From the NCBI GenBank assembly GCA_951406725.2, contig OX597817.1, forward strand, positions 29,016,001 to 29,080,000: 64,000 bases of DNA, read 5' to 3'. The notes beneath the pieces were generated by a model. It had not been told where the DNA came from, did not search any database, and was given only the letters and a program-made list of their open reading frames with translations. The stretch comes from Octopus vulgaris. Taxonomy: Eukaryota. Shown in pieces: positions 10,011 to 58,735 of this stretch (position 1 is the first letter of the stretch; each line of letters begins with the position of its first letter). Both the position numbers and the translations under genes were made by a program.

Positions 10011-10374
10011 TATACGACCACTATATCGCTCTACCACCGCTCATGTCTCTCTGAGACATTTAGAAATTCAATATTTCTAATTTCGGTGATCAGTAAATAA
10101 ATTTTACTGATAATATGATATATTTGCAAGGAGGTTGCAGTCATCTCAGCGAGTGAGGCAGGCTACACTGAGCTGACGACGAGCAATACACTTAGAAACA
10201 TATGTCTTCAGGTGCTTTGTCCCAGCTTGCGGGGGTGATTGCCTCCCCATTGCAAATATAAGGACACAGAAAATGTGTCAAAGCTGACAGGAGACGTCGA
10301 TGTTTCCTAGGGCTAAATGGCGGTGGTGTAATTCCCTTACGGGACTGTCACATTGAGTTGACAGTATACGACCA
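10011..10374 (+). mobile_element. Structured HHR-bearing short element (retrozyme-like), copy 1
   Basis: tatacgacca direct repeat at both ends (354-nt period); long hairpin 10119-10260 capped by an HHR; four 3' hairpins shared with 15378-15625. Confidence 0.65.
10166..10214 (+). ncRNA. Minimal type-I hammerhead ribozyme motif
   Basis: ctgag-CTGACGA-cgag caataca ctta-GAAAC-atat-GTC^-ttcag; helix I pairs, palindromic helix III loop, one helix II mismatch; predicted cut after C10206. Confidence 0.7.
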
Positions 10375-12576
10375 TTGTCAACTATAAATATATATATATA
10401 TATCGCAGCTAGCATTGCTACTTCATATAACATATATTGTTCTATGCTTACATATACAAGATAATCTCTATTCTGCTGGTACTATGATTAAATGTACTCA
10501 AATACAGTCTGTAAAGTTACTGGTATAGAAGCGCATCCAAGTATAGAAACTATGCCGTAAAATAGACTGTAAGAGTGAAGCATGGTCTCTGACCACTCTA
10601 TGAGTGCAGTAACTCTGAATAACATATATATATGTTTATTTATATATTTGATGTAAACTATCTCTTATTTCATATCTCACACTTTTCATTATTAATTTTA
10701 ACTCTCAAAGCATAATGATGAAATATATTCTTACATGAGTTATATGCTCCAGCAGACATATTCATAGAGCACAAGTGTATATCAGAATTATAGATAAAAT
10801 TTCTCATGATTCACCACATAGTTTACATGAAAAAAAAAAACTTGAAGACATTGTAATGGCAGTCTAACAGAATGGAGAAATAAATAATAGAGAAATAGAG
10901 AAAGATTCATGTATTTCTAATGTTTTCTTGGGCAGACATCATGTATTACTTATTAATAAAGATAAACAGTCACCGTTATGATTGATGAGTAGAGGAATAC
11001 ATGTCTACATACAGGGATACACTGACAGACGTCTTTCTTTCTTCACATTAATCTATTGTCACTAATGTAACGATAGTTTAAAATTGCTCAGAATTAGGTA
11101 TAATTGTTGTTGGGTGGTGGTGGTCATGGCAGTGTTGATGACAGCGGCCAACATCAGCAAATGTACTTTGTAATTTTCTTGAAAGTTGCAACTGAGTATT
11201 TTGTCTTTCAGTTGAAGGACTTTTTGTCAAGAAGATTGTTTTGCAGCATGTGTATTTATTTATTTATTTTTGTGGGGTTTTGTAAAAAAAAAAACAAAAA
11301 AAACCATTGTACTGATTCACCATGGGAATGTATAAACGTGTAACCATTTGTTTATATTCTTATTTTTACTGACACATCTGGGGGTTCTTTAGTGGAACAA
11401 TCCTGAATTTTGTTGTTTCCACTGCAAATTTAGATCTTGCTTAAAGCAATGAATCATATTGTTTCAAATAACACATATTTTCTCTACTTAACCCCAAAAC
11501 TACTGGACTGGCAACAGCAGCTTCAGGACAATACAGAAACTGCAAAATTGACAAAAGCAGTAGAAGTATTGTATAAGGAAAAAAAAAATCATACGATTAT
11601 TAAAAAAAAATAGCTTATTGAATTCAAAGTATATCTGTAAAAAAATAGCATCCCAGAGTAAAAAGAGAAAAAAATCTTCTAAATGATATTTAGAAAATAT
11701 TAGTGTTTTATTTTCCTTTTCTTTTCTCTTTTCTTCCTCTTACATTTTTCCATATTTGAGCAACTCCAAATGTTTAAAGATGGATTTTTGGCAAACTTGC
11801 CTACCCTGTCCCCTTCTCTGAAATCACATTGGTTGCTCGTCATTTTCATTTTTTTTCTTTTTTTCGCTCTTTTTCTCATTTAACAACTTTGGTTGAATAA
11901 TATAGCTTGTTTTTCATTTAGATACACTGAAGTTTTTGGGAAACATTTGAATTTGCTTGTTATTACTTCTCTCTTAAATTGTATGTTACAAGAATAGCAG
12001 TTATGTACAAAACACAACATTTTAGAATAATATTCATTTAATGGTTTCTTTTTGACAACTATTCTGTGTTTTACTTGAGAAAGAACTAAGTTCTTACCGT
12101 CAGCAGGGTTCTAGCTCTCAATATTTAATAGTATTAGTACTTGTAGTGATGGTGGCAATAGTTTCAGGTGTGTTTTAAAAATAGCCTATTCCAAATAATA
12201 GGAGTCTAGTTACTTTATTCAGTTATTAATATACTTGTCAACTACACAGTAATAGCCATTTTGGCTCATATTTTAAAACTCTGCATCTCTGCATCCTTAC
12301 ATTTATTCTAGAAGTTACAGCTGATTTACATTTTACAAAAATGTCAAGGGTTCCAGTTATGTGTAGGAGACTTGTGACTTTGTTGCTCTGTTTGACATAT
12401 AATAGCATATGTTCTAGCATATTCAGGTAAAAAGAAACACATAAAACCATAATACAGTATTCAGTACTGTTCAGTAGAAAAGTGTCCACTCATTTTTTCA
12501 AATAGAAATAAACCATATGAATGAAATATGGTCTCTACAAGCCACATTGTAAGCTACCTGTTTTGGAAGTTGGTAA

Positions 12577-12980
12577 TATTCTTTTCTACTCTAGGCACAA
12601 GGCCTGAAATTTTGGAGGAATGGGCCAGTCAATTAGATCGACCCTACTATGCAACTGGTACTTAATTTATCGACCTCAAAAGGATGAAAAGCGAAGTTAA
12701 CCTTGGCAGAATTTGAACACAGAACGTAAAGACAGACGAAATACCTATTTCTTTACTACCCACAAGGAGCTAAACACAGAGGGAACAAACAAGGACAGAC
12801 AAACAGATTAAGTCGATTATATCGACCCCAGTGTGTAACTGGTACTTATTTAATCGACCCCGAAAGGATGAAAGGCAAAGTCGACCTCAGTGGAATTTGA
12901 ACTCAGAACGTAAAGACAGACGAAATACTGCTAAGCATTTCACCCAGTGTTCTAGCTTCTCTGCCAGTTTGCTGCCTTTG
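12577..12980 (-). mobile_element. Two tandem SINE family B copies
   Basis: Repeated aactggtactta..tcgacc..aaggatgaaa..gaatttgaac.cagaacgtaaagacagacgaaatac. Confidence 0.8.
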
Positions 12981-13896
12981 AAGTTGGTATTGTTGTATAA
13001 GAACAGATAAAGGATTGAGAAGATTCTCTAATCTTGCCTCATACAGTCCCTCTAGTACTAGTGGCATGATAAAATGCACCCTATACTTTCTGTTAGCTGG
13101 TTAGTGATAGGATAGGCATCCAGTCATAGACAGACACGGACTTAGCGATCCACATTATAGGCTACTCGTCTAGGAGGGCAGTAACTCAGAATAAGAATTG
13201 ATGTAGGGTAGAGGGAACTCTTAATCTTTTCATAAATAGCTTCTCTGATGCTTATGGCTGGATCAAAAGTATGTCGTTGTCACAACAAACTAGGCTGGTT
13301 TTCTTTGTTGCTCTGTGTATCAGATAAGTAAACAGTGACAAGTGAGATGGTTCCTTGAGACCCACCAGCCAGTGCTAGCATTGAAAAACACAGGAAATGA
13401 TGATTATGACTATGTTGTTATCAATGTCACCACTGATGACACCAAAAACTGTCAATGAACACAGATAACCATAAAATTCAGCATTATTAAAAGTCATGAT
13501 ATATGTGCCTGTAGTTATGTTATTGAGGATTTATTAATTGGAAGATTTGAGAGTTAAATTTTACAGTGATTGAATGAAAAACTGTTTTTTTATGATTTAT
13601 TTTATCAAACATATTTATAAACATTTTAATGTATACTGAGAATTTCAGATATAAACAACATATATAGCCGAGTCATTGGTTTAATTTGGTCTGATAATTT
13701 AGCTTATTGATATGATTTAGAAAAGAAAATCTATAAATAAATTATATGATCTGATTCAAAATGTGTATGGTAAAGACAGAATTTCAACTTATTGATATTA
13801 GACGCTATTTTTTTTGACAGGAAAGAAAGCAATATCTATGTATGACCCTTTACTGGTGGAAGTATAAAAGAAAGGTTGAATTCTTACTTGGAATAC

Positions 13897-14282
13897 ACTT
13901 TTACTTGTTTCAGTCATTTGACTGCGGCCATGCTGGAGCATCGCCTTTAGTCGAGGAAATTGACCCCCAGGACTTATTCTTTGTTTGCCTAGTACTTATT
14001 CTATCGGTCTCTTTTGCTGAACTGCTAAGTTACGGGGACGTAAATACACCAGCGTTGGTTGTCAAGCGATGTTGGGGAGACAATCACAGACACACAAACA
14101 CACACACATATATGCATATATACGACAGGCTTCTTTCAGTTTCCGTCCACCAAATCCACTCAGAAGGCTTTGGTCAGCCCGAGGCTATAGTAGAAGACAC
14201 TTGCCCAAGGTGCCACGCAGTGGGACTGAACCCAGAACCATGTGGTTGGAAAGCAAGCTACTTACCACACAGCCACTCCTAT
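13897..14282 (-). mobile_element. SINE family A
   Basis: Reverse complement of consensus. Confidence 0.9.
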
Positions 14283-15377
14283 GTATTGTAGATATTTTCT
14301 GTTTGTAGAATTGATATCCTGATGCTGTTTTACAGCAGAATGTGTACTAAACTTTCAGACCAAGACATCTTGTTTACAACGTTCTAATGCTTATGACTTT
14401 CAAACACTTATGTAGGCAAATCATTGAACTCTTTAGTGGTCGTTTTTCAGAGCAATGATTTGATGCTACAATTTCCCCAATGCAAAACTACCAAAGAGGA
14501 AAATAGCTTTCATTACTTTTATATGATAAAGCTAGAAATTTTATCTTATCTAAGTTGATTGTTAACTGTTAGTATAATGATATGCTCGGTGTACACAATT
14601 GAAACTGTATTAAATTAAGACTGTCATCTGTGTACCGTACCTAATGTATATTCACCATTAAAATGACTTTGTGGTTTTGTCCAAGAGAAAAATCTCTTTG
14701 TACACGTTGTGTTAAAAACACAGTATATATTGGAGCAAGGTGAGCATTACCCCAGCAGTAACTCACAAGAATGTTTGACATATTGTGACCTTTTTTGGCC
14801 TTGTCAATGACACACTGGCTTGGCTGAATGAAACTTGGTGTACAAATAAGTTTACATTATTTACAATGCTCAAGAAAGCCAAAACACATGTGACATTCTT
14901 GCGAATCACTGTTGGGACAATGTTCAAATCACCTCAATATATATTGTGCTTTCAACACGTCTATCAACAGATTTTTATTTCAAACAAAATCCACATCACA
15001 TATAACAATAGTGTATATTCACCAATTGTATTCAGCCTGACAAGCTTTCTACTATATCAGTGAATGTTCAGTTCATTGAATATCAAAGAGGACATATTTC
15101 AACTAGGTCCACAACAACAAGGTACACGTCATTGATGAGACCCAACAAGGCTGAAACAGATCTAGTGTTTTCATGAGTCACTTGCTGAGATGATATCTGC
15201 CTCACTTTGATATAAAATTGTGTCTTTAACACACCATATCTTTGAAGAGATCATTCAAACTAACACCACAACATCATGCCTTCCAGTGGTACACAAATCG
15301 CTACACAAATTACCTGCTTTTGACTAAATTCACAATTTAATTTATAGATTAGTGACTAGTTATTACTTTGAAAACTA

Positions 15378-58265: not shown

Positions 58266-58319
<54 letters not shown>

Positions 58320-58328
58320 ATATATATA

Positions 58329-58486
58329 GGGGAAGAATTCACTAAAAAAACAAAAGATGAAGACAGGTGGTGTAGACAACAAACAGATGTATTAGTTTAA
58401 CGCTCGGGAACTGAAAAAGTCTTTAATGTTTCGAGCCTACACTCTTCCACAGAAAGGAACACAGAGAGAAACAATGTCTTTATATA

Positions 58487-58545
<59 letters not shown>

Positions 58546-58735
58546 GAAGAAATCACTAAAAAAACAAAAGATGAAGACAGGTGGTGTAGACAACAAACAG
58601 ATGTATTAGTTTAACGCTCGGGAAGTGAAAAAGTCTTTAATGTTTCGAGCCTACACTCTTCCACAGAAAGGAACACAGAGAGAAACAAGGAGAGAAAATA
58701 AAGAATGTGTTGTCGCTAGTGATCCATCATGCTTT
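58329..58735 (-). mobile_element. Tandem (214-bp period) short element with HHR-like motif (CUGUGGA core)
   Basis: Motifs at 58421-58456 and 58635-58670: cttt-CTGTGGA-a-gagt gtag gctc-GAAA-ca-TT-aaag on minus strand. Confidence 0.6.

Follow-up and report, generated by a model that had tools for sequence, protein, structure and literature searches.

Penelope-like elements (PLEs) of metazoans, molluscs included, carry type I minimal hammerhead ribozymes (min-HHRs) with a palindromic, reduced helix III, and the accessible part of the survey by Cervera and de la Pena (2014, PMC4209133) describes many divergent families per genome, extreme variability, mostly solo copies and opposite-strand pairs 100-700 bp apart. 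We analysed the hammerhead-like motifs in one 64,000-nucleotide stretch of Octopus vulgaris DNA (GenBank assembly GCA_951406725.2, contig OX597817.1, 29,016,001 to 29,080,000 of the forward strand; hereafter the window, to which all positions refer), which holds part of the gene for lachesin. Judged from sequence, these motifs are Penelope-type minimal hammerheads of four lineages, mostly of a known kind. One family, named C here, has a reversed 3-8 pair (G3-C8) in its core and, as far as the literature was searched, goes beyond the published min-HHR cores.

The likeness to the metazoan PLE hammerheads extends to an extra base after A9 and a G10.1-C11.1 pair, both present in families C, D and F of the window; A and B are mismatched at 10.1-11.1 and have no extra base, and exceptions to this rule are published (PMC4209133). 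Long palindromic helices III, UUU and AUA triplets and an extra G have precedents in the same paper. An earlier note on this DNA had seen unusual core diversity in the window; much of that diversity is what PMC4209133 describes for many animals, and the G3-C8 core alone goes beyond the literature consulted. In the rows of Fig. S3 of PMC4209133 that were consulted the cores have C3 or U3, none G3-C8 or A6U, and no cephalopod is listed in its accessible part. Natural 3-8 covariation amplified in a repeat family is known from U3-A8 variants (PMC3088659), with about 1,300 in Schistosoma mansoni (PMC4209133). Family C differs from these in being a transversion swap, for which the literature searched gave only engineered examples (PMC11167929, PMC3884650); among core variants the accessible part of PMC3088659 mentions U3-A8 and A6C but no G3-C8. 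A PLE hammerhead is rescued in part by the engineered double mutant C3G/G8C (PMC11167929), and an engineered G3-C8 variant was reported to be more active with G17 than with C17, data not shown there (PMC3884650).

PLE insertions often comprise an inverted, 5'-truncated copy with a one-sided tail at microsatellite targets (PMC8557442). The Poseidon PLE of Anolis (PAc) cuts ATT, and its reverse transcription begins about 110 nt past the hammerhead (PMC11167929). As in PAc, the hammerheads of families C and D precede defined 3' ends by about 110 nt, the tail is optional and the targets are AT-rich (ATT). They differ in that PAc is autonomous with a C3-G8 core, whereas C and D appear short and non-coding, and the tail of C is about 73 nt, against 30-40. 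The SINE-like elements Sm-alpha/Sj-alpha of Schistosoma (reviewed in PMC6765202) and the non-LTR retrozymes (bioRxiv 10.64898/2026.07.22.740005) are likewise short, non-autonomous and equipped with a type I hammerhead, and Sm-alpha is transcribed by RNA polymerase III (Pol III), as family D may be. The Schistosoma elements and retrozymes form head-to-tail tandems with canonical hammerheads, whereas the two arms of family D are inverted, 5' to 5', and have a minimal hammerhead and a tail of the PLE type. The giant squid genome has 235 Rfam hammerhead hits (PMC6962438). A non-LTR retrozyme identity was rejected for the motifs of the window, of which only F is in tandem and has a defective core and helix III. 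In the literature searched, which was mainly open-access and did not include the large 2017 survey of PLE hammerheads by Lünse, we found no report of a natural G3-C8 family, nor of octopus hammerheads or of PLE-linked short interspersed nuclear elements (SINEs); that survey reportedly covers many PLE hammerhead variants and could contain G3-C8.

Census and lineages of the hammerhead motifs

The hammerhead-like sites of the window are the following.

10168..10211, plus strand: family A min-HHR, core CUGACGA, 5-bp helix I, 8-nt palindromic helix III, GUC triplet
15429..15469, plus strand: family B min-HHR, core CUGAUGA, 4-bp helix I, 8-nt palindromic helix III, AUA triplet
19834..19949, minus strand: arm of family C in inverted orientation, its G3-C8 min-HHR (19890-19939) complete
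20136..20185, plus strand: family C min-HHR, core GUGAACA (G3-C8), 7-bp helix I, 5-bp helix II, G10.1-C11.1
37072..37114, minus strand: copy of family D, broken by the loss of G12 and of three nucleotides at the cut site
37399..37444, plus strand: family D canonical min-HHR, core CUGAUGA plus extra A, G10.1-C11.1, CG palindrome, GUU triplet
56836..56880, plus strand: motif E, doubtful and decayed, core CUAAUGA (G5A), shortened GAAA region, 5-bp helix I
58421..58456, minus strand: family F motif, copy 1, core CUGUGGA (A6U), between (TA)n runs
58635..58670, minus strand: family F motif, copy 2, core CUGUGGA (A6U)

All five cores named in the earlier note were found at the positions and on the strands it had given, with core starts at 10173 (+), 15433 (+), 20143 (+)/19932 (-), 37404 (+)/37109 (-), 56841 (+) and 58452 (-)/58666 (-). 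The consensus core CUGANGA...GAAA...NUH with a Watson-Crick 3-8 pair is kept at 10173, 15433 and 37404 (C3-G8) and at 19932 and 20143 (G3-C8), and is broken at 56841 (G5A), 58452 and 58666 (A6U) and 37109 (G12 lost). Cleavage is predicted after 10206 in A, 15465 in B, 20178 in C and 37439 in D. The palindromic reduced helix III that the note ascribed to most motifs is present in A and B (8/8 pairs each), C (6/6) and D (4/4), but F reaches only 1/4; the two F copies are a single tandem duplication with a non-palindromic helix III.

The type I descriptor was built on a core that agrees with the published consensus (PMC4209133), and its thresholds were tuned post hoc, with the motifs already known at that point. 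The window, which is rich in repeats and has 35% GC, was compared with block-wise dinucleotide shuffles (first n = 30, then n = 200). The strict descriptor found one site, the family D motif at 37404 (+), and at least one site also occurred in 1/200 shuffles. With a Watson-Crick 3-8 swap permitted there were three sites in two insertions, and at least two sites in 0/200 shuffles; a long-stem descriptor gave two sites, and at least one in 0/200. The relaxed descriptor found eight sites against a shuffle mean of 1.6 and maximum of 7 (0/200 at eight), and the excess over dinucleotide-shuffled controls on which the earlier note had staked its reading is thus seen. Counted as insertion events the relaxed total is six, which 1/200 shuffles gets to and which includes an A/T-rich chance match at 40541 (-). 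The true core without the 3-8 swap had six sites in the window, whereas 60 scrambled cores averaged 1.4, with a maximum of 4. No shuffle of 200 yielded a site of the family C type. Rfam returned no hammerhead among its 119 window matches at E up to 10, nor in two local scans; none of the 28 other CUGANGA heptamers listed in the window matched any descriptor. A3-U8 cores were absent from the window, and the U3-A8 core had one weak, A/T-rich match, at 57970.

The motifs had been taken for five unrelated families. Several lineages there are, but A and B are related: in addition to the motif they share a downstream segment.

10250..10318, plus strand: segment of family A common to family B (15511-15577), 77% identity, E 4e-6

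The identity of 77% over about 70 bp scores 59 against a null maximum of 30, and between the two motifs four base pairs have changed on both sides and three on one, with pairing and core kept. The other 27 pairs among the elements and the flanks of a nearby Penelope-like relic (described below) were not above nulls. Motif E fails all descriptors, and a looser scan modelled on it gave two sites in the window and at least one in 8/40 shuffles. Because of the kinship of A and B and the failure of E, we count four lineages (A/B, C, D and F) and one doubtful site (E).

Families C and D and their insertion geometry

Around the hammerheads of families C and D the following features were delimited.

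19982..20073, minus strand: second family C arm, 5'-truncated, core absent, ending on a (TA)n run
20118..20326, plus strand: main copy of the family C element, about 210-230 nt, ends and joints seen in contigs of three organisms
40886..41099, both strands: second family C insertion, an inverted pair of 5'-truncated arms, core absent
37017..37524, both strands: family D insertion, whose two arms meet at their 5' ends and of which the plus arm alone has a tail, about 30 nt long
37268..37321, plus strand: A box (37268) and, 45 nt further on, B box (37313) resembling a type 2 Pol III promoter, heading family D

The family C motif has a palindromic helix III and a UUU triplet (U17), and it belongs to a multi-copy family with a consensus of its own. 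A query of 20076-20400 at 80% likeness against contig runs of three organisms returned 6,384, 13,382 and 9,222 contig records per organism, a part of which lies on a neighbouring 36-bp SINE piece. The summed depth at the core was about 10,000-fold that of single contigs, a figure to be read as very many and not as a copy number. In none of the three organisms does a letter of 20076-20161 vary at 4% or more in the contigs, so their shared consensus is GUGAACA. A second loop II type with an identical core is marked by loose ends at 20163, which 58-79 contigs of each run show. Three variants are listed inside the motif: one at a loop base, one that turns C11.1 into T within a CpG (3-6%) and one in helix I that replaces U-A by U.G (7-15%). 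Seven sites in the downstream part of about 140 nt are polymorphic at 10-90%.

Nine of the 15 family C joints listed (of 32) are opposite-strand, and eight of those start at 20118-20127. Long pieces end at 20253 or 20326, with TA-rich sequence after 20326, and on the 5' side some 19 nt of extension lead to a TA run; the ends and the extension therefore fit a short element of about 230 nt. We rejected the alternative of an opposite-strand SINE, there being no A/B box pair on that strand and the arms joining at their hammerhead-sense 5' ends. No pile-up of contig ends was seen at the predicted cut site among the ends listed, and contigs cannot reveal RNA ends. Family C patterns had no match in genome contigs of prokaryote and virus collections; exact pattern matches on one viral and one metagenome contig were discarded, with unrelated flanks and neither helix II nor GAAA. 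The family C insertion lies between inverted copies of a different high-copy repeat (19168-19501 and 20462-20853), which recurs at 54006-54389, and a 38-bp piece of it (20074-20111) sits on the family C inversion joint.

The family D insertion is flanked by an 11-bp direct repeat in an ATT run (37006-37016 and 37525-37535). Both of its arms start with A and B boxes; the scan, which scored the plus arm, expects 0.18 such pairs per shuffle. Neither arm nor the pair had an Rfam tRNA match, and ARAGORN made no call. These features suggest that family D is a Pol III-headed element of about 270 nt, represented by one insertion. Elsewhere in the window an isolated A/B box pair (43670-43740, plus strand) is possibly an old SINE head, and a tRNA-like stretch with A and B boxes (18271-18327, minus strand; 31.1 bits, above the Rfam gathering score, no ARAGORN call) resembles tRNA-Asp(GUC) heading a repeat, or a pseudogene.

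A 5'-to-5' inverted truncated copy, a one-sided tail and an AT-rich target, the marks of PLE-type insertion, are thus found in families C and D. Such geometry was not seen for A, B, E and F.

The Penelope-like relic and the lachesin gene

The earlier note had connected the motifs with a relic of a GIY-YIG endonuclease, which was borne out as a true PLE fragment and, moreover, as an inverted pair.

6579..7221, minus strand: main arm of the PLE relic, linker between reverse transcriptase (RT) and endonuclease (EN) with a CxxC motif and a decayed C-terminal GIY-YIG domain, with stops and a frameshift
7243..7593, plus strand: second arm of the relic, inverted and 5'-joined, tblastn E 1e-35

The arms are 85% complementary over 348 nt. 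The main arm matched at tblastn E 3e-51, and the relic query, with one stop read through as X, had 420 relatives at E<=0.001 (HMMER), of which the closest named ones are octopus proteins; a 78-aa query gave nothing in a word-indexed protein search, unlike the full HMMER search. The relic's own Pfam GIY-YIG match is weak (E 0.051) and RT is absent from it, but its relatives carry RT motifs upstream of the matched linker and GIY-YIG, the C-terminal EN+ PLE arrangement, with a weak RVT_1 match N-terminal of the matched part in 3 of the 14 relatives scanned. A Zn-finger-like Cys motif in the RT-EN linker, which together with RT phylogeny defines the Neptune/Nematis clades, is present in the relic (+ arm) and its relatives. 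The relic's closest protein had no relative among viral contigs.

The direct tie between motifs and relic fails. No hammerhead adjoins the relic 3' end, a two-mismatch match at 7870 (-) falls outside it, relic and motifs have no common sequence, and no further PLE coding match occurs in the window. What links the motifs to Penelope is therefore geometry, seen in the insertions of families C and D; inverted arms also occur in the relic.

The host gene is represented by two exons.

47683..47832, plus strand: lachesin exon, first half of the second Ig domain, 96% identity to Octopus bimaculoides lachesin (tblastn)
59244..59423, plus strand: lachesin exon, second half of the second Ig domain, acceptors at about 59244 and 59295

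The part 59295-59423 is identical to O. bimaculoides lachesin over 42 aa, and no upstream lachesin coding part was found in 1-47682 by tblastn. The assumption of the earlier note that the intron extends over the motifs holds, and all motifs are intronic in lachesin if the assembly is continuous. The exon at 59244-59423 has an internal duplication (IGMTGE twice) and with it two acceptors, separated by 51 nt; the longer form occurs in four related transcripts, the shorter in isoform X2 of O. bimaculoides. The inverted insertions at 19834-20322, 37017-37524, 40886-41099 and 6801-7593 would give long intronic double-stranded RNA hairpins in the lachesin pre-mRNA, the first two reaching -235 and -351 kcal/mol when about 550 nt are folded, and such hairpins are possible ADAR editing substrates in a cephalopod.

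Other repeats were also noted. Many copies belong to a SINE-like family about 400 bp long whose internal (TA)n tract varies in length, and three tandem units of about 345 bp each lie at 21209-22354.

2013-2418, 3280-3732, 4128-4546, 13893-14295, 25849-26283: SINE-like copies of about 400 bp
27957-28395, 38520-38962, 39864-40324, 52408-53092, 59684-60109: SINE-like copies of about 400 bp

Acidic open reading frame (ORF) fragments at 5239-5917 and 49363-49832 resemble relics of piggyBac-type transposases, the second with Pfam DDE_Tnp_1_7 at E 0.062. Three more ORF fragments look by eye like relics of other mobile elements and had no significant Pfam match: a restriction-like endonuclease relic (38858-39569, minus strand), the C-terminus of a long interspersed nuclear element (LINE; 45257-45511, plus strand) and a Tc1-like transposase relic (55122-55493, plus strand).

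Origin and activity of the motifs

Considering the above results, we regard as likely the explanation that the motifs are PLE-derived pieces, that the window copies are passengers and that the G3-C8 ribozyme of family C is probably functional but slow in its source element. Its established part comprises anatomy, enrichment, family-wide G3-C8, 5'-to-5' arms, fixed 3' ends, a one-sided tail, AT-rich targets, intronic position and sequestration in silico. In the model that we propose, the motifs would be dispersed 3'-end pieces, or short non-autonomous partners, of several PLE families that settled in AT-rich microsatellites of the lachesin intron. A PLE protein would nick AT-rich DNA and reverse transcription would start about 90-180 nt downstream of the hammerhead, and therefore even short insertions would in many cases retain the motif. 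Cleavage in the source elements would take place only in dimers within one family and with protein help, and the window copies would not cut the lachesin pre-mRNA. Family C keeps the swapped 3-8 pair as its consensus, with a U at the cut site that may avoid a G3-C17 trap; U17 may be an accommodation to G3, because the engineered G3-C8 variant mentioned above was reported to be more active with G17 than with C17.

Several observations weigh against this explanation. Within the window no motif is joined to PLE coding sequence and the relic is without a hammerhead; A and B lack the 10.1-11.1 pair, and F has A6U. In family C, C11.1 shows C>T at 3-6%, and the conservation of the motif relative to the body is not significant (0 disruptive changes in 42 constrained positions, against about 2 predicted by a hand estimate, p about 0.12). 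Short contigs drop rare variants and 710 loose ends lie outside the listing, so a subfamily with a canonical core may have escaped notice. As modelled, a dimer of family C (-27.2 kcal/mol) is 2.2 kcal/mol less stable than two monomers (-29.4), which are closed by a G3.U17 pair that extends helix I, and cleavage is dispensable for PLE insertion in vitro (PMC11167929).

The same observations bear unequally on the alternatives. Chance look-alikes in repeat-rich, AT-rich DNA might be suspected where descriptors were tuned on motifs already seen, where the relaxed match at 40541 and probably the site at 56841 are at chance level, and where Rfam has no hammerhead match. The counts, however, are matched by 0/200 shuffles and 0/60 decoy cores, A and B differ by compensatory changes and family C is conserved family-wide; chance is largely refuted for A to D, may apply to E and to the A6U core of F, and as an account of the whole set is scarcely credible. 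The earlier note had instead placed the most intact copies mostly on the sense strand and proposed that they could, if they dimerise, cut the pre-mRNA of the host gene, here lachesin, whose expression would then be affected. All sites are indeed intronic, 10173 and 15433 are unpaired with their flanks in a 500-nt fold, and with many copies per family a partner could act in trans. Yet there is no strand bias (five plus and four minus sites, p = 1.0), and of the seven motifs parsed only same-family pairs form helices I and III, with one sense copy per family in the window. No cross-family pair has both helices, and cross-family sense pairs give at most two helix I pairs. The best sense copies are sequestered, 20136-20185 (core 20143) and 37399-37444 (core 37404) being paired in the plus transcript with their own antisense arms at mean probabilities of 0.98 and 0.93, and 10173 and 15433 lack both a partner and the 10.1-11.1 pair. 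Published min-HHR monomers are inactive and dimers weak (PMC4209133), and in Anolis the motif depends on PLE protein, with no RNA-seq ends mapping to the site of cleavage (PMC11167929). Cutting of the pre-mRNA is thus very improbable in our judgement.

A PLE origin could also be combined with a dead G3-C8 core, the swap having arisen once in a master element of family C that had ceased to need cleavage, and spread by hitchhiking. This would agree with the dispensability of cleavage in vitro, where hammerhead mutants leave PLE insertion unaffected, with the missing RNA-seq ends (PMC11167929), with Naiad PLEs, which thrive without hammerheads (PMC8557442), with the G3.U17 wobble that closes the monomer and with the non-significant conservation of the core. 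It nevertheless requires an exactly compensatory double change with helices I, II and III intact, and the core persists through a multi-base change of loop II while the common helix I variant stays paired; we consider a dead core rather unlikely. We return, then, to PLE-derived passengers with a family C ribozyme that is probably functional but slow in its source element. A bolder form of this explanation makes family C a non-autonomous, Penelope-dependent element, roughly 230 nt long, that is present many thousands of times in several octopus-type genomes and has an active G3-C8 ribozyme under selection, co-adapted with U17 and missed by CUGANGA descriptors, and makes family D a Pol III-headed SINE that parasitises Penelope and not a LINE; taken jointly, these propositions are offered tentatively, with the balance somewhat against them.

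The 3-8 pair is a key contact of the active hammerhead fold, and a reversed natural pair therefore matters. A high-copy G3-C8 family would put thousands of variants at hand to look for selection on cleavage in Penelope hammerheads, a question raised by the dispensability of cleavage for insertion in vitro (PMC11167929), and it is suggested that genome censuses based on CUGANGA undercount such motifs. Family D, in turn, may be a lead to SINEs mobilised by Penelope elements.

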